From the NCBI GenBank assembly GCA_965277805.1, contig OZ255842.1:1536001-1600000 (forward strand): a stretch of DNA of 64,000 nucleotides, in the 5' to 3' direction. Origin of the DNA: Candidatus Lustribacter sp. Lineage in GTDB: Bacteria > Vulcanimicrobiota > Vulcanimicrobiia > Vulcanimicrobiales > Vulcanimicrobiaceae. Under the pieces are notes generated by a model. That model worked only from the letters and a program-made list of their open reading frames with translations. It had not been told where the DNA came from and did no database searches. Positions 3,919 to 48,048 of this stretch are shown here, piece by piece; the first letter of the stretch is position 1, and the number at the start of each line of letters is the position of its first letter. The position numbers and the translations under genes were made by a program.

Positions 3919-4338
3919 CTACGGCTGGTAGCTTCCGAAGCTCCAGAGATAGCCTTCCGGATCGGCGGCGCTGAATGTTCTGCCGCCGTATTCCGGCGAG
4001 CGCAGTTCGATCGTGATGCGCGCGCCGGCCGCTTTTGCGCGCACGTAGGCTCGTTCGACATCGTCGTCGTTATCGAGCACGATGTAAGTGCCCCCCGTGA
4101 CGCCGCCGAGCTCGCCCGGCGTGTGGCTGGGCCACTCGCCGTCATCGTGTTTGCGGGCGGAGCCGAGCATGATGAAATGGCCGCCGAGCTTGAGCTGCGC
4201 ATGCTCGACCTGCCGGTCGGTGCCTTCGTAGACGGCATGCTTCTCGAATCCGAACGCGGCGCACAGAAAGTCGATTGCGGCCAGCGCATCGGCGTAGGTG
4301 AAACACGGCATGATCGCGCGAATTACGGATGTGGTCAT
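3919..4338 (-). CDS. VOC/glyoxalase (PhnB-like) family protein
   Basis: AIDFLCAAFGF, HAQLKLGG, YGGRTFSAADPEGYLWSFG. Confidence 0.88.
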   Translation of the reverse strand: MTTSVIRAIMPCFTYADALAAIDFLCAAFGFEKHAVYEGTDRQVEHAQLKLGGHFIMLGSARKHDDGEWPSHTPGELGGVTGGTYIVLDNDDDVERAYVRAKAAGARITIELRSPEYGGRTFSAADPEGYLWSFGSYQP

Positions 4339-41773: not shown

Positions 41774-42112
41774 CTACGCTTTGTACTCGCGCCACTCCGA
41801 GATTTTGCCGTCGCGGGTGTGGACGATCGCGCAGCCGGGGCTACCCGTCCAGGTGCCGTCTTTGAGCTTGATTTCCCAGGTGTAGGCAACCGCGAAGCGT
41901 TCGCCGTCGCCGAAGAGATCGTGCACTGTCATGCGCCACTCGGGCCCGCCGTGAAAGAACGGCTTCCAGTGCGCGGCGATCGTATCGCGTCCGACGACCG
42001 GCTCTTTCTTGGCTTCGTGAAAGATGCCGTCGGCCGTGAAGTATGCGGCCGAACCGGTTTCGTCACCGGCTCGCCACAGGTCGAACATCTGCTCGAAATC
42101 GGAAACGGTCAC
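41774..42112 (-). CDS. NTF2-like (SnoaL) protein
   Basis: FTADG..E...GRD.I...W, DGKISEWREY. Confidence 0.8.
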   Translation of the reverse strand: MTVSDFEQMFDLWRAGDETGSAAYFTADGIFHEAKKEPVVGRDTIAAHWKPFFHGGPEWRMTVHDLFGDGERFAVAYTWEIKLKDGTWTGSPGCAIVHTRDGKISEWREYKA

Positions 42113-42483
42113 AGGTCGCCGACGCGCACCCCGTCGGTAAGGGCATCGTTGAGCGTCGAGTAGACGGCGAAGATCTTGAGCAGGCCGGTGATGCGCAGCA
42201 GGCGCACGATCTGGCCTTCCTTCACTACGAGGCGCACTTCGCCGTCGAACTCTTTGGCCCGCCGCTGCGCGCCGATCAGCGCGCCGAGGCCGGTCGAGTC
42301 GAGGAAGTCGACGTTGGTGAGATCGACGATGAGCCGATGATCGCCGCGCGCGGACGCATCGAGCAGCGATGCCCGGACCGTCGGCGAGGTGGCGATGTCT
42401 AAACTGCCGCTGAGTTCGAAGACTTGCATGCCGTCCACGACGTGCATGTGCAGTTTGAGATCTTCGTGACTGTGATTACTCAA
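42109..42483 (-). CDS. STAS-domain anti-sigma factor antagonist (RsbV/SpoIIAA-like)
   Basis: GSLDIATSP, VDLTNVDFLDSTGLGAL, LLRITGL; TTG start inferred downstream of the tRNA. Confidence 0.88.
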   Translation of the reverse strand: MSNHSHEDLKLHMHVVDGMQVFELSGSLDIATSPTVRASLLDASARGDHRLIVDLTNVDFLDSTGLGALIGAQRRAKEFDGEVRLVVKEGQIVRLLRITGLLKIFAVYSTLNDALTDGVRVGDL

Positions 42484-42520
42484 ATTGTCCAACCCTTCCG
42501 AATCCGCCGGGAGAGCGATG

Positions 42521-42593
42521 CTGGGGCGGCTGGACTCGAACCAACGCATGCCAGGATCAAAACCTGGTGCCTTACCAACTTGGCTACGCCCCA
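42521..42593 (-). tRNA. tRNA-Gln(UUG), CCA not encoded
   Basis: TGGGGCGTAGCCAAGTTGGTAAGGCA CCAGG-TT-TTG-AT-CCTGG ... GGTTCGAGTCC..CGCCCCAG. Confidence 0.95.
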
Positions 42594-42648
42594 CAAAATC
42601 GCGCCTCGGCGCCAGCGCGTCTAGTTAGACGACACGGCCTCTGAGCCT

Positions 42649-43035
42649 TTAGGTGCGAACGCGGAACGCGCGGTCGGCGAGCGCCGAGACGATCGGGATC
42701 GTGAAGAGCTCGCCCCGGCCCGCGCGCGCCGAGTAGGAAAACGCGAGCACGGTCAGCGTCACGAACACGATCGCGTCGAGGAGCAATCCGGCCATGTAGA
42801 TGGTGACGGTCGCGCCGGTCGAGATGCCGGCGTCGAAGATGACCGTCAGCAGCGGCAGGGCCATCACGACGACGAAGACCACGCTGGCCAAGATCCCGAA
42901 CGTCAGCGCTTGGCGCGTATGGATGCGCGTCCAGCGCGACGCATCCGGCACTTCCCGGACCAGCGCGGCTAATGCGAGCGGCCAGACCAAGTACGCGCTT
43001 GCGGCGCGCTGATAATCTTGCTGCTCTTCGATCAG
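42649..43035 (-). CDS. Hypothetical integral membrane protein (DUF4870-like); start uncertain, possibly CTG
   Basis: AYLVWP, H.RQAL.F, three hydrophobic helices, GELFTIPIV; CTGA overlap with the nlpC stop. Confidence 0.6.
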   Translation of the reverse strand: MIEEQQDYQRAASAYLVWPLALAALVREVPDASRWTRIHTRQALTFGILASVVFVVVMALPLLTVIFDAGISTGATVTIYMAGLLLDAIVFVTLTVLAFSYSARAGRGELFTIPIVSALADRAFRVRT

Positions 43036-43706
43036 ATTAGCCGTTTGGCTCCGAGGTAGCGCGCCGACCAGTAGCTCTCGTGCAGGTTCGAGACGGTGAC
43101 GCCGTGGCTCGACGAGGCGTGCACGAAGCGGTCGTTGCCGAGGTAGATTCCCACGTGCGACGCTCCGGCAGCGTACGTTTGGAAGAAGACCAGATCGCCC
43201 GGAACCATCTTGGCGCCGGTCACGCGTTTGCCGGCGTCGTACTGCGCGTCGGCGGTGCGCGGAATGTGATAGCCGAGCATCGCGAAGACGTGCTGGACAT
43301 AGCCCGAACAGTCGAAACCGCGCGAACTGGTCCCACCGAACACATAGGGTACACCGAGGAAGCGCATCGCGTTGCGGGTCAGCGTGACCGCGAGCTGCGT
43401 GCTGCGATTGACGATCCCGTCGGCGAAGCGCCGAACCAGACGCGAACCGGTCAGCCGGGACTCGGCCGGCGTCGCTTCGGTTGAGGGGTCGACCCCCCAC
43501 ATGGCGAGATCTGCGCCGGCCGTCGGTGCCACGGCCTCGATGGCGGCTGCGCGCACGGCCTGGGCCTGCGAGGCGGGGGCGGCCTCGGCGGCTGCGGTGG
43601 CGACCGTGACGGCCGGCGGAAGCGCCGTCTCCGCGGCTCCGCCAATAGCGAAACTCGTTGCGGTCAAAAGGACCGTACACGCCCCGGTAACGAGGAAACG
43701 AAACAA
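43032..43706 (-). CDS. Secreted NlpC/P60 (C40) peptidoglycan endopeptidase
   Basis: LGVPYVFGG, FDCSG, PGDLVFF, SHVGIY, FVHAS; AAGGAG 6 nt before TTG. Confidence 0.93.
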   Translation of the reverse strand: MFRFLVTGACTVLLTATSFAIGGAAETALPPAVTVATAAAEAAPASQAQAVRAAAIEAVAPTAGADLAMWGVDPSTEATPAESRLTGSRLVRRFADGIVNRSTQLAVTLTRNAMRFLGVPYVFGGTSSRGFDCSGYVQHVFAMLGYHIPRTADAQYDAGKRVTGAKMVPGDLVFFQTYAAGASHVGIYLGNDRFVHASSSHGVTVSNLHESYWSARYLGAKRLI

Positions 43707-43727
43707 GAACTGCTCCTTCTTCCAACA

Positions 43728-43846
43728 CTTACGGGGTTAGTTGACGGGTTAGGACAGAAGAATTGCCCTCGAGCCGACCGGCTCGTTCACCCCTACCGGG
43801 AATCCCCCGTTCCGGTCTGCGAGGCCGGACTCAGCGATTACGTAAG
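43728..43846 (-). ncRNA. Cyclic di-AMP riboswitch (ydaO/yuaA class)
   Basis: Minus strand CTTACG..ATCGCTGAGTCC..GGAACGGGGGA..GGGGTGAA..AGGG..CCTAACCCGTCAACTAACCCCGTAAG; terminal CTTACG/CGTAAG pair; sits upstream of a wall hydrolase, a typical context. Confidence 0.92.
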
Positions 43847-43930
43847 CAGAGATATTGTGTGGGTTTAATCACCCACTAACCCTGGGTAGAGGGCTGAGCT
43901 TAGTATTTCCTTCCGCCAAACGGCGAAATA

Positions 43931-45292
43931 TTAACTTTCTGCAAGGGTCCCCGCGGCGGTACGAATTACCGCGGCTACGGCCTCCGCGACGTCGCTCGTG
44001 GTCGCCTCGTCGGCCGCCTCGACCATCACCCGGACCAGCGGCTCCGTCCCCGAGGGACGTACGAGAATCCGGCCGGCCTGCCCGAGGCGCGCCTCGGCCG
44101 CAGCCACGGCGGCCAGCACGGCCGGGGCGCCGGCGATGTCGCGGTCCTCGACCCGCACGTTGATCAGGATCTGCGGGAACACGGTCATGGCTGCTGCGAG
44201 ATCGCGCAGCCGCTTCCCGCTGCGCGCGGCGACGCCGAACAGGGTCACTGCCGTCATCAAGCCGTCGCCGGTCGTGTTGCGGTCGAGGTCGATCACGTGG
44301 CCCGATTGCTCGCCGCCGAGCCGGTAGCCGCCGGCGCGCATCGTCTCGAGCACGTAGCGATCGCCGACCGCGGCCCGTAAAAGCGCGATGCCGGCACGCT
44401 CCAGGGCGCGCTCGAGTCCGACGTTGCTCATCACCGTCGCCACGACCGCATCGCCCGGTAGCGCGCCGCGCGCGTGGCGCTCACCCGCCAAGATCAGCAG
44501 CGCATGATCGCCGTCGAGCAGCTCACCGGTTTCGTCGACGAACTTCGCGCGGTCGGCGTCGCCGTCGAGCGCGACGCCCACGACGCGCGTGGTACCGCGC
44601 GCGATCTCAGCGCGAACCGTCGCCTGCAGCATCGTGAGGTCGGTCGCGCCGCAGGCCACGTTGATGCGCGCCCCGTCGTCCTCGGCATTGATCGCGATCA
44701 CGCGCGCGCCGAGCCGTTCGAACACTTGCGGTCCGATGCGAAAAGCCGCGCCGTTGGCCGCATCGACGACGATCGTCCAGCCGCTGAGATCGCTGCCGGC
44801 GGCGACGAGCATCGCGACGTACCGTTCGGCGAGTTCCGGGGCGGCGGTTGCGACGCCGACGCCGGTGTGCGTTGGACGCGGCAGCGTCACGTCGTGCAGC
44901 CGCTCGCCGATCTCATCTTCGACCGCATCGGAGAGCTTGAAGCCGTCCGGGCCGAAGAACTTGATGCCGTTGTCTTCAATCGGGTTGTGCGAGGCCGAGA
45001 TCATCACGCCGGCGGCAGCACCGAGAGTCACCGTCACGGCGGCGACGCACGGCGTCGGCACGACGCCGAGCAGCACGGCGTTGCGGCCGGTCGAGGTGAT
45101 CCCCGCGATCATCGCGGCCTCGAGCATCGTGCCGGAAAGCCGCGTGTCGCGGCCGATCACGATCGGCATATCCGGACCGGCCGCATGCGCGATCACCGCG
45201 GCGCCGGCGCGGCCGACGGCAAACGCGAGTTCCGGCGTGAGGTCGGCGTTGGCTACGCCGCGTACGCCGTCGGTGCCGAAGAGGCGGCTCAC
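43931..45292 (-). CDS. glmM: Phosphoglucosamine mutase
   Basis: FGTDGVRG, MISASHNP, DGDADR, GGEQSGH, RPSGTEP. Confidence 0.95.
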   Translation of the reverse strand: MSRLFGTDGVRGVANADLTPELAFAVGRAGAAVIAHAAGPDMPIVIGRDTRLSGTMLEAAMIAGITSTGRNAVLLGVVPTPCVAAVTVTLGAAAGVMISASHNPIEDNGIKFFGPDGFKLSDAVEDEIGERLHDVTLPRPTHTGVGVATAAPELAERYVAMLVAAGSDLSGWTIVVDAANGAAFRIGPQVFERLGARVIAINAEDDGARINVACGATDLTMLQATVRAEIARGTTRVVGVALDGDADRAKFVDETGELLDGDHALLILAGERHARGALPGDAVVATVMSNVGLERALERAGIALLRAAVGDRYVLETMRAGGYRLGGEQSGHVIDLDRNTTGDGLMTAVTLFGVAARSGKRLRDLAAAMTVFPQILINVRVEDRDIAGAPAVLAAVAAAEARLGQAGRILVRPSGTEPLVRVMVEAADEATTSDVAEAVAAVIRTAAGTLAES

Positions 45293-45969
45293 GATTTCAC
45301 GCCCGCAGAGTTGGTCGACGGCGCGAAGCGCGCGCGCACGCGCACCAGATTCGGAGAAACTTGGGTGTTCGCGACCTCGTTGCCGTGCGCGTCGGCGGCG
45401 ATCGGCCGTACCATCGCATCAAAGTTTCCGGGCTTCGTGCCGAGCGGAATCTCAATCTTCACCACATCGACCTTCGCCAAATCATTGGCAATGCCGCGCA
45501 CGGTGGTCAGCGACGGGTTGACCGTCGATGATTCGACGACCAGCGAACCGTTGCCGCCGGCATACGAAATGCTCACCGGCACGGTGCGCGTTTCCAGGCG
45601 GTCGACGCTCAGCGTCACCGATGCCGGCGACAGCGACTTGATATTGAGGTCGGGCGCGACGATCTTCACCGGCAAGTTCATGATGCCGGGATCGGGCTTG
45701 TCGTTGAGATCGAGCACCGCTTGGATCTGATCGGATTTGATCGGCGGCCCGTTGCGCGGCTGCTCGACCGTCACGATCGCCGTGCGCTCGTCGTAATTTG
45801 CCACGAGGCCGGGGCGCAAACCGGTGACCACGATCGGCACGCTGAGCTGTTGATCGAAGTGGGCCGTGATCGACGCTGCAGCGGAGAAATGGAAATAAGC
45901 CCACGCCGTAACGGCGAGGGCCAGCGCCAACAGCTTAAGCCTGAAGTTTCTCTTGATCGCTTGAAGCAC
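45289..45969 (-). CDS. cdaR: CdaR/YbbR-like regulator of diadenylate cyclase (short form)
   Basis: N-terminal TM LKLLALALAV.AW, YbbR-like beta domains, position between cdaA and glmM. Confidence 0.8.
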   Translation of the reverse strand: MLQAIKRNFRLKLLALALAVTAWAYFHFSAAASITAHFDQQLSVPIVVTGLRPGLVANYDERTAIVTVEQPRNGPPIKSDQIQAVLDLNDKPDPGIMNLPVKIVAPDLNIKSLSPASVTLSVDRLETRTVPVSISYAGGNGSLVVESSTVNPSLTTVRGIANDLAKVDVVKIEIPLGTKPGNFDAMVRPIAADAHGNEVANTQVSPNLVRVRARFAPSTNSAGVKS

Positions 45970-46810
45970 GGGTCATTCGCGTTAACAGATTGGCAAGCCA
46001 CGGCGGCGGTTCGGCGGCATGCGGACGGCGGCGCGGCCGGATGCACGCTTCCAGCACTTTGCGCAGCCGCTCTTCATCGTCGATGCGTACCGACAAGCGG
46101 CCCGCGCGCGCGACCGAAACGGTGCGCGACTCTTCCGAAACGACCACCACCACCGCGTCGGCCTGTTCGGTCAAACCGATCGCCGCGCGATGACGCGTGC
46201 CGAGATGCCGTTCGGCGACGATCGCGTTTTCCGAGAGCGGCAGAAAACATGCGGCGCCCTCGATCAGCAGATCGCGCACGATGACCGCACCGTCGTGCAG
46301 CGGCGACTGCTTGTTGAAGATCGCCATCAGCAGATCGCTCGAGAGCTTCGCATCGAGCGCGGTGCCGCTCTCGACGTATTCGCGCAGACCGGTTTGGCCT
46401 TCGATCACGATAAGGGCACCGAGGTTTTCGGCTGCCAGGCGAAACGCCGCGGCCGCGACCGTGCCCACCAGCTGGTTCGCAATCGCTTCTTCGTCGGCCG
46501 GCGCGCGATGAAAGAATCTGCCACGGCCGATCTGTTCGAGCGCGCGCCGCAACTCCGGTTGAAATACGATCGGCAGCGTGACCGCGGTGCCCAGCAGCAA
46601 ATACTGCATGACCGTGGCCAAAACGAGCAGGTGCAACAGGTTGGAGACGCCGAGAACGATCACGAGCGTCAGCAGGCCCAGCACGATCTGAACCGCGCGC
46701 GTGCCGCGGATGAGGAGCAGCAGATAGTAGATCAGGATAGACGTAGCGACGATATCGATCGCGTCGGAGATGCCGAACGTACCGGAGAACGCGCCGAAAT
46801 AGGGGATCAT
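45935..46810 (-). CDS. cdaA: Membrane-bound diadenylate cyclase
   Basis: 3 TM helices, FQPELRRALEQIG, catalytic LHDGAV and GTRHRAA, VSEE. Confidence 0.95.
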   Translation of the reverse strand: MIPYFGAFSGTFGISDAIDIVATSILIYYLLLLIRGTRAVQIVLGLLTLVIVLGVSNLLHLLVLATVMQYLLLGTAVTLPIVFQPELRRALEQIGRGRFFHRAPADEEAIANQLVGTVAAAAFRLAAENLGALIVIEGQTGLREYVESGTALDAKLSSDLLMAIFNKQSPLHDGAVIVRDLLIEGAACFLPLSENAIVAERHLGTRHRAAIGLTEQADAVVVVVSEESRTVSVARAGRLSVRIDDEERLRKVLEACIRPRRRPHAAEPPPWLANLLTRMTRASSDQEKLQA

Positions 46811-47127
46811 TCGAGGCCGACCAGGTGGCGCTCGAGGATGCGCGACGCGTCGAGTTCCGGATCGGCGAGACCGACCGCCGCCAAGTGCGCCGCTTCTTCA
46901 TCTTCGATCGGTTCGGCCTCGGCGGCCGGGACGAAATGCGTTTCGATCGTGATCAAGTCGTCGATCAAATCCGGCCGCGTCACCTCGTCATCGAAGCTGA
47001 CCGTCACCACGTCGTCGCGCTCGAAACACGACTGGATGCCCGCGGGCGCGCCGGGGCCGACCAGCGCGGCCAGCAAGTTGGCGCGCACGGCGGGATCGGC
47101 AGCGATGACGGAACGGACCACCTGCAC
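46807..47127 (-). CDS. Hypothetical acidic protein coupled to cdaA
   Basis: 106-aa ORF whose TGA overlaps the cdaA ATG (ATGA). Confidence 0.65.
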   Translation of the reverse strand: MQVVRSVIAADPAVRANLLAALVGPGAPAGIQSCFERDDVVTVSFDDEVTRPDLIDDLITIETHFVPAAEAEPIEDEEAAHLAAVGLADPELDASRILERHLVGLE

Positions 47128-47142
47128 CGGTCTAGGGTTCGC

Positions 47143-48048
47143 ATGACGTCATCGCAAGTCCGCCGCGCGATCGTGATCGCCGTCGGCCGCAACGCCGCCT
47201 GGGTAGTGCGCGACGGCGAACGCGAACCGGTGCTGGCGGCGCTGCGCAAGACGCTGGCTCGCACGGTGCTCGCGCCGGGCGACATGGTCACCGTTCAAGC
47301 ACTCGACGACGACCGGGTGGTGATCGACGCGGTCGAACCGCGCAGCTTCGCGTTGGTCCGGCGCACTGCCGGCGGCCGCACCAAAACGATGGCCGCCAAC
47401 ATCGAGACGATGGCGATCGTGGCGGCCCTGGCCGATCCGCCGCCTAGCCTGCCGATGCTCGACCAGCTGATCGCCTTTGCCGTCCAGCACGAGGTCGAAG
47501 CGGCGCTGATCTTGACGAAGCCCGATCTCGCCGAACCGGACGCCGTCGAGCGCATGCGCGCGATCTACGGGCCGGCCGAGGTGCCGGTGCTGGTCGTTCA
47601 GCCCAAAGCCGGCGACGGCATCGACGAGCTCGCTGCCTACCTGACCGGCCGCCACGCCTTGCTGGTGGGAAACTCCGGGGTCGGCAAAAGCAGCATTTTC
47701 CGGGCCTTGGGCGGGACGGCGACCGTCGGCGACCTTTCGCGCTTTGGACGCGGCCGCCAGACCACCACCTCGGCCAAGCTCTTCCAAACGCCGGGCGGCT
47801 TCCTCGTCGACAGCCCGGGGATCGGCGAGTTCATCCTCGACCCGATGCCGGCGGCCGAGCTCTCCTACCTGTTCGTCGAAATGCGCGAACCGGCGACGCG
47901 CTGCCGGTTTGACGACTGCCGGCACCTTCACGAACCCGATTGTGCCGTCCGCGAGGCCGTGGCCGATGGCCGGATCGCTGCCAGCCGCTACGCCAGCTAC
48001 CGGGCGCTGTGCGAGGTGCACGACGACAAACGGCCTTGGAGCAGCTAG
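47143..48048 (+). CDS. rsgA: Ribosome small subunit-dependent GTPase A
   Basis: Permuted TKPD, GNSGVGKSS, RGRQTTT, DSPG; zinc finger CRFDDCRHLHEPDC. Confidence 0.92.
   Translation: MTSSQVRRAIVIAVGRNAAWVVRDGEREPVLAALRKTLARTVLAPGDMVTVQALDDDRVVIDAVEPRSFALVRRTAGGRTKTMAANIETMAIVAALADPPPSLPMLDQLIAFAVQHEVEAALILTKPDLAEPDAVERMRAIYGPAEVPVLVVQPKAGDGIDELAAYLTGRHALLVGNSGVGKSSIFRALGGTATVGDLSRFGRGRQTTTSAKLFQTPGGFLVDSPGIGEFILDPMPAAELSYLFVEMREPATRCRFDDCRHLHEPDCAVREAVADGRIAASRYASYRALCEVHDDKRPWSS

Follow-up and report, generated by a model that had tools for sequence, protein, structure and literature searches.

The DNA analysed here is a stretch of 64,000 nucleotides (the window, always meant at its full length) from Candidatus Lustribacter sp., positions 1,536,001 to 1,600,000 of contig OZ255842.1. 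On its minus strand we found a riboswitch leader followed by two genes, one for an NlpC/P60 endopeptidase and one for a DUF4870-like membrane protein, and this unit lies directly downstream of the gene series orf106-cdaA-cdaR-glmM. The explanation that fits the sequence comparisons best, and which we hold with good confidence, is that the leader is a genuine riboswitch for cyclic di-AMP (c-di-AMP) that heads the P60-membrane protein unit as a putative translational OFF switch, behind the operon of the genome's only diadenylate cyclase.

The riboswitch and its target genes

The unit consists of the following parts.

43846..43711, minus strand: c-di-AMP riboswitch aptamer of the ydaO/kimA class (RF00379)
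43757-43762, minus strand: 5' strand of the pseudoknot, UUCUUC, in an aptamer hairpin loop
43717-43722, minus strand: 3' strand of the pseudoknot, GAAGAA, followed by the Shine-Dalgarno sequence GGAG at 43713-43716
43706..43032, minus strand: NlpC/P60 endopeptidase gene, 224 amino acids, TTG start
about 43035..42649, minus strand: small multi-pass membrane protein, DUF4870/MamF_MmsF-like

The aptamer matches the covariance model RF00379 over its full length (model positions 1-134 of 134) with 76.9 bits against a gathering score of 38 (E 4e-16), and the ydaO-class riboswitch named in an earlier reading of this DNA, which we call the original prediction, is thereby confirmed. In an alignment of 30 riboswitch sequences from the window's class, 96.3% of the cells in the aptamer helices are paired and 16 of the 33 pairs show compensatory changes; none of 500 shuffles matched the observed pairing and covariation, and slid controls did not exceed 52% paired cells. 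The alignment supports all helices of the Rfam structure, and the core nucleotides of RF00379 are invariant in it. The pseudoknot (helix 7) is 92.8% paired, and in three of its six pairs both partners vary: it reads UUCUUC/GAAGAA in the window's genus and is replaced as a unit by UCUUUC/GAAAGA elsewhere. According to excerpts of PMC5393176, the loop CUCCUUCG of the crystallised ydaO RNA pairs with the tail CGAAGGAG, and the pseudoknot in the window, formed between a hairpin loop and the 3' tail, matches this arrangement of the solved structure. Judged by these comparisons, the aptamer is a genuine member of the c-di-AMP riboswitch class. Some variation was seen within the element itself: in four public runs, whose contigs look like low-depth DNA, one base is missing at 43708, in the spacer from the Shine-Dalgarno sequence to the start, and a T>C change is present at 43769 in the aptamer. 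Both match the states of sister species and thus look like co-occurring related strains.

The TTG start of the endopeptidase gene at 43706 lies five bases past the end of the aptamer model (43711) and six after GGAG, and the 3' strand of the pseudoknot, GAAGAA, runs straight into this Shine-Dalgarno sequence. At the aligned start position we read, by eye, TTG in 25 of the 30 sequences and ATG in none; in the relatives G011, G021 and G024 a loop complementary to the Shine-Dalgarno sequence itself was likewise seen by eye. The encoded protein matches Pfam NLPC_P60 (PF00877) with 1.6e-35 and 121.7 bits against 23, over profile positions 1-105 of 105, and has a signal-peptide-like N-terminus. It carries DCSGY, SHVGIY and FVHAS, read by eye, which may hold the catalytic Cys, His and His.

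Because the covarying pseudoknot runs into the Shine-Dalgarno sequence, and with nlpC of Corynebacterium glutamicum as a precedent, we propose a switch that would act on translation. The c-di-AMP made by CdaA would lock the pseudoknot, hide the ribosome-binding site and lower translation of the endopeptidase. Wall cutting would then fall at high c-di-AMP, and it would increase whenever CdaA is inhibited, be it by GlmM, as known from Firmicutes, or otherwise. In the sections of PMC9960051 used here, the precedent nlpC (cg2402) has a ydaO/kimA-class aptamer directly before an NlpC/P60 wall peptidase, no canonical terminator and a proposed pseudoknot with the ribosome-binding GGAG, and c-di-AMP represses it, most likely at translation. 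Two differences to our case appear in the same sections: the cyclase of C. glutamicum is DisA, for which they describe no link with nlpC, and the species possesses four genes of the NlpC/P60 type and two predicted riboswitches. The window's genome, which belongs to a different phylum, has one of each, directly behind cdaA-cdaR-glmM. An alternative hairpin of the pseudoknot tail with the U-rich spacer and the start codon was considered and rejected as too weak (with wobbles counted, only 3-5 of its 6 positions pair, and the surroundings are U-rich). The minimum-free-energy fold of the aptamer plus start (z 0.05) is uninformative, because pseudoknots are not modelled in it.

The second gene of the unit is less well defined. 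Its product reaches 19.9 bits with Pfam DUF4870 (PF09685), under the cut-off of 25; the nearest protein-atlas clusters carry PF09685 with a score of 0.92, which serves as a lead only, and tblastn found a homologue behind P60 in 15 of 29 riboswitch loci of relatives. The start of the gene is uncertain: its conserved N-terminal part (42990-43035) begins without an ATG, GTG or TTG, and the first in-frame TTG would lose about 15 conserved residues. Translation might begin at a CTG or ATC, or be coupled to the P60 stop.

The cyclase operon and its conservation

On either side of the unit, the locus contains the following features.

46807-47127, minus strand: orf106, a small acidic protein, first gene of the tightly packed cluster
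45935-46810, minus strand: cdaA, membrane-bound diadenylate cyclase (Pfam DAC and CdaA_N, TIGR00159)
45289-45969, minus strand: short CdaR-like (YbbR-domain) gene, 226 amino acids
43931-45292, minus strand: glmM, phosphoglucosamine mutase (TIGR01455, four PGM_PMM domains)
43847-43930, minus strand: spacer between glmM and the riboswitch, exactly 84 nucleotides
42600-42619, minus strand: terminator-like hairpin with T-run, behind the membrane-protein gene
42520-42593, minus strand: tRNA-Gln (UUG), a conserved downstream neighbour

The coordinates, the 84-nucleotide spacing and the gene calls of the original prediction proved correct throughout, all on the minus strand. Each of the upstream genes overlaps the next of the four: the stop of orf106 and the start of cdaA share ATGA, the cdaR-like gene overlaps cdaA by 35 nucleotides, and it overlaps glmM in GTGA. 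The cyclase matches Pfam DAC (1.5e-39) and CdaA_N (1e-08) and passes NCBIfam TIGR00159 with 228.7 bits against a cut-off of 188.8. The motifs DGA and RHR are found at residues 173 and 206, and the cyclase is thus intact in both, as had been predicted. GlmM passes TIGR01455 with 528.9 bits against 447.55 and shows four PGM_PMM domains in Pfam. The small orf106 has no match in Pfam or NCBIfam; its codon-position GC of 0.77/0.42/0.83 is coding-like, and by tblastn it has homologues before cdaA in G005 (65% identity) and G051 (51%).

The CdaR-like protein needs more caution. With Pfam YbbR it reaches 17.7 bits, under the cut-off of 22.3, and only one YbbR stretch is matched; six of nine orthologues at the same position are above this cut-off, with at most two stretches matched. 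The part of the review PMC10636490 used here gives B. subtilis CdaR four YbbR domains. Because the window protein has only 226 amino acids and fewer YbbR matches than B. subtilis CdaR, we call it CdaR-like. The predicted cdaR thus stands with regard to its position and to the YbbR matches of its orthologues, and falls short in the score of the window protein and in the number of domains. The same part of PMC10636490 describes cdaA-cdaR-glmM as a conserved operon and GlmM as an inhibitor of CdaA, in agreement with what the original prediction had assumed.

At the two ends of the locus we made two further observations. The GTG start of orf106 (minus strand) is about 15 nucleotides from the likely ATG of rsgA (plus strand, about 47143; region 47127-47143), which implies either divergent promoters inside each other's coding regions or one start that is called too early. 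Directly downstream of tRNA-Gln, at 42109-42450 on the minus strand, a STAS-domain protein of the anti-sigma-factor-antagonist type is encoded.

The genome of the window (5.53 Mb, one contig, estimated 95% complete) gave one RF00379 match, one DAC-domain match and one NlpC/P60-domain match, and all three lie within 3.5 kb. Neither a PgpH-type 7TM-HD domain nor a DarA/PstA receptor was found in it. The only candidates for c-di-AMP-degrading enzymes are two DHHA1 matches far from the locus, so that the locus does not hold the whole signalling system, and to call the circuit self-contained, as had been done, was too strong.

For the comparison with relatives we used a sample of 151 genomes of the phylum, here named Eremiobacterota (WPS-2), in which the coordinates of RF00379 and GlmM were compared by hand. 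In a set of close relatives, 26 of 29 riboswitch loci are flanked by glmM on the upstream and by P60 on the downstream side; one locus belongs to the unpublished genome G036. Across the window's class, presumably Eremiobacteria, glmM stands less than 300 nucleotides upstream on the same strand in 70 of the 76 riboswitch-bearing genomes. All 72 genomes of the window's family possess the riboswitch, and in 66 of them the end of glmM is found within this distance on the same strand; a second family shows the adjacency in its one sampled genome and a third in all three riboswitch-bearing genomes, G036 among them. The order cdaA-cdaR-glmM-riboswitch-P60 was confirmed in eight longer loci, and a Candidatus Eremiobacteraeota record (L090) has glmM, riboswitch, P60 and membrane protein in the same order. 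The adjacency in relatives, which the original prediction had put forward as its test, is therefore present, both in the 26 of 29 loci and in the 70 of 76 class genomes. Exceptions exist. In five genomes of the window's family (G017, G021, G058, G078 and G161) the gap between glmM and the riboswitch measures about 2.1 kb. In G017 and G021 it is filled by a gene for an M61 glycyl aminopeptidase (L032:2354-4342, minus; L033:4669-6669, plus), which in G021 also gives weak PDZ matches below the Pfam cut-offs; glmS as the insert of these two genomes was rejected on this ground. In G139 the riboswitch and P60 are 13 kb from glmM.

Outside the class the picture is different. Eleven genomes of other classes have the riboswitch, and in none of the ten with a GlmM match are both on one contig. 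The eight riboswitches of these classes that were inspected precede genes for Usp, KdpA, asparagine synthase with opine dehydrogenase, GCS2, alanine racemase and other genes. Of seven glmM loci from these classes, six have cdaA nearby and none has P60 behind glmM. The best riboswitch of the whole phylum sample (115.8 bits) belongs to G042, a member of another class, and precedes an asparagine-synthase-like gene and an opine/octopine dehydrogenase gene (L046:641-3087, minus). We also analysed a broad sample of riboswitch cores (122 loci, mostly from Actinomycetota, Bacillota and Chloroflexota): glmM is upstream in only one of the 79 sites with enough flank, and this one is an Eremiobacterota record. 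Thirty glmM loci of Bacillota contained no RF00379, and in 17 the glmS ribozyme is directly behind glmM. For Chloroflexota the GlmM protein search at E<=1e-60 matched one of 31, a threshold too strict to test this phylum. Because the layout was not found outside the class in the sampled genomes, we regard it as lineage-specific and, by this sampling, as an ancestral arrangement of the window's class. A different proximity was seen in a Clostridium niameyense record (L092, about 1680-2690), in which the riboswitch and a DAC gene are about 360 nucleotides apart on opposite strands, with glmM 10 kb off.

Cyclase and riboswitch are also absent together. Six genomes of the third family (G030, G031, G032, G033, G037 and G038; 96-98% complete) have no DAC and no RF00379. 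In the four of them that were inspected, glmM is still followed by P60 and then by the tRNA, cdaA is missing upstream, and neither Rfam at E<=1 nor sensitive nhmmer, which found 20 of 20 positive controls, detected any remnant of the riboswitch. The sister genomes G034, G035, G039 and G040 have both DAC and riboswitch. Riboswitch and cyclase are thus present or absent in concert, independently of glmM and P60, a pattern compatible with a functional pair of ligand and sensor. At the same time, the glmM-P60 adjacency does not need the riboswitch, since it is kept in the cyclase-less genomes. Such relatives, which lack cyclase and riboswitch and still possess glmM and P60, form a natural control that can be exploited. 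In G037 (L204:4470-5360) the P60 gene behind glmM has an ATG after GAGGG and encodes a LysM-like N-terminal stretch; in the window, by contrast, P60 starts with TTG and lacks a LysM-like stretch.

Alternative readings of the adjacency and of the switch

The spacer between glmM and the riboswitch has a GC content of 0.476, compared to 0.652 for the window. A simple scan of 42400-47600, which covers sigma-70-type promoter sites only, gave neither a sigma-70-like promoter nor a terminator-like site in it. The spacer folds with -30.9 kcal/mol (z -2.84) into three small hairpins that have no U-tract, and it contains the purine-rich motif GGAAGGAAAT at 43905-43914. A search of the window for this motif returned its own site only, with 2.1 expected by chance. 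A related motif, AGGGAAT or GGGAAC, is found upstream of the riboswitch in other genera (spacers of L029, L021, L012, L018, L016, L008 and L010), and an AAAC box stands exactly 14 nucleotides behind it in several genera. Conceivably, this motif marks a promoter of an unknown type, or else it is an element of the leader. Otherwise the spacers of relatives measure 50-223 nucleotides, are not conserved in sequence between genera and frequently hold G+C-rich hairpins. RNAalifold gave no consensus structure for 15 glmM-riboswitch spacers, and no further Rfam family was detected in the spacer at E<=1 in six relatives' loci.

A number of observations speak against our overall explanation or narrow it. 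The compensatory changes in the pseudoknot stem mostly from one genus (6 sequences), so that few independent events are behind them. The main register of the pseudoknot pairs GAAGAA and not GGAG, so that the Shine-Dalgarno sequence would be occluded only in part or sterically, except if a second register (GAAGGA, one G-U pair included) forms. The single DAC and NlpC/P60 matches come from profile searches of the genome at E<=0.001, which very divergent relatives could escape. The six cyclase-less genomes are three genera of one family, and the co-absence, confined in this way, may be a single loss. Finally, the riboswitch-P60 unit is detached from glmM in six of the 72 genomes of the window's family, a tRNA occupies the same downstream position in relatives, and the purine-rich motif keeps with the riboswitch when this is detached from glmM (L034 about 4040-4060; L032 about 2275-2290), a hint that the unit has its own promoter.

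These last points lead to the question of why the unit stands behind glmM. Conservation also extends to the downstream tRNA, which makes inherited synteny a serious alternative in which the adjacency may carry no function: an independent riboswitch-P60 unit would have been located behind glmM since the class ancestor and would have been kept there by a stable neighbourhood. We consider this quite conceivable, if somewhat short of an even chance. It agrees with the detached versions, with the conserved motif upstream of the riboswitch and with the persistence of glmM-P60 where cdaA, cdaR and the riboswitch are gone; it is harder to reconcile with a conservation that spans three families with 55-70% GlmM identity, and with the short gap in the window, in which no terminator was detected.

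One may also think of a single transcript that runs from orf106 over cdaA, cdaR, glmM and the riboswitch to P60 and the membrane protein, with the riboswitch as an internal element and with the coupling under selection, so that the genes are kept together. We hold this only tentatively. Between genera the gap differs in sequence and in length (50 to 223 nucleotides), and it often contains G+C-rich hairpins; the unit stands without an adjoining glmM in G139 and behind the M61 gene in G017 and G021; the motif upstream of the riboswitch moves with it; and the promoter scan was limited to sigma-70-type sites. What keeps the idea of one transcript attractive is that the four upstream genes overlap and that the unit follows on the same strand after 84 nucleotides with no terminator-like or sigma-70-like site detected in between. 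Additionally, 70 of 76 class genomes share the adjacency, and in 17 of 30 Bacillota loci the glmS ribozyme occupies the position behind glmM. On such a transcript the hydrolase mRNA would rise with the cyclase mRNA while c-di-AMP would block its translation, an incoherent feed-forward loop that we judge rather doubtful. Of the joined circuit of the original prediction, the parts are real and adjacent; their union on a shared transcript is a tentative reading, and riboswitch and P60 are also found detached in G139 and in the five genomes with the 2.1-kb gap.

Concerning the switch itself, we think it unlikely that transcription and not translation is the level of control, be it through Rho-dependent or through non-canonical attenuation. 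Precedents for such an action are known. In B. subtilis, according to the excerpted parts of PMC10636490, the riboswitches of kimA (ydaO) and ktrAB (yuaA) terminate transcription; they share the RF00379 aptamer and the OFF logic with our element, and differ in their terminator platform, in their potassium importer targets and in not being adjacent to cdaA. The riboswitch of Streptomyces coelicolor rpfA, as described in the sections of PMC9960051 used here, is similar in that it controls a muralytic enzyme and has no canonical terminator, and different in that the target is an Rpf-type lytic enzyme and that transcript levels are lowered. In the window, however, the scan of 42400-47600 gave no terminator-like hairpin after the aptamer (the one listed above lies behind the membrane-protein gene), the start codon follows five bases from the model end and the pseudoknot abuts the Shine-Dalgarno sequence. 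It is very improbable that the riboswitch is a 3' element of the upstream operon, which would feed back on the stability of the cdaA-glmM mRNA and would not serve P60, because nothing but its place at the 3' end of that operon favours this, while aptamer, Shine-Dalgarno sequence and start codon are contiguous and the riboswitch, where the parts are separated (G139, G017, G021), keeps to P60 and not to glmM.

Known systems and biological meaning

The messenger c-di-AMP has long been tied to wall homeostasis, although its RNA targets in model organisms are mostly potassium and osmolyte transporters and the link to the wall is indirect. Streptomyces uses DisA. The original prediction had associated riboswitch control of wall hydrolases mainly with Actinobacteria, which use this cyclase; the pairing of riboswitch and NlpC/P60 is not limited to them, as it occurs in the Bacillota loci L087 and L120 as well. 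The closest likeness on the operon side is found in Firmicutes. In the portions of PMC10636490 drawn on here, they have the same order cdaA-cdaR-glmM, often followed by the glmS ribozyme and glmS, and also there a metabolite-sensing RNA directly behind glmM controls a cell-envelope gene. In our Bacillota sample, however, the RNA behind glmM is the glmS ribozyme in 17 of 30 loci and RF00379 in none, and the CdaR of B. subtilis has four YbbR domains, compared to the short protein of 226 amino acids here. The place behind glmM may be a preferred site for envelope riboswitches, taken by the glmS ribozyme in Bacillota and by the c-di-AMP riboswitch in Eremiobacteria.

Our full-text literature search, in which published lists of riboswitch gene contexts were not covered, gave no c-di-AMP riboswitch downstream of glmM and no c-di-AMP study of Eremiobacterota; this is in line with the earlier statement that the joined layout had no description. 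Already known are the RF00379 parts, the control of NlpC/P60 in Corynebacterium and that of other wall hydrolases in Streptomyces. New are the phylum, the class-wide place behind the cyclase operon, the economy of one cyclase, one riboswitch and one hydrolase, and the co-absence of cyclase and riboswitch. The finding extends known parts and contains no new mechanism.

In summary, the only riboswitch target of this genome is its only NlpC/P60 gene, next to its only cyclase gene, in a phylum with very few cultured members. This offers a very small and clean regulon in which to ask how c-di-AMP balances wall synthesis, with precursors from GlmM, against wall cutting. One may speculate, though we think the chances are modest, that both sides are placed on one mRNA as an incoherent feed-forward loop. 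On this mRNA, c-di-AMP from the enzyme of the first gene would control whether the last gene is translated, and c-di-AMP synthesis would be hard-wired to wall hydrolysis. If this single-mRNA reading is true, the lineage, with its one cyclase, one riboswitch and one NlpC/P60 enzyme, would offer the simplest system in nature for studying how c-di-AMP and the cell wall are connected, a matter of long debate.

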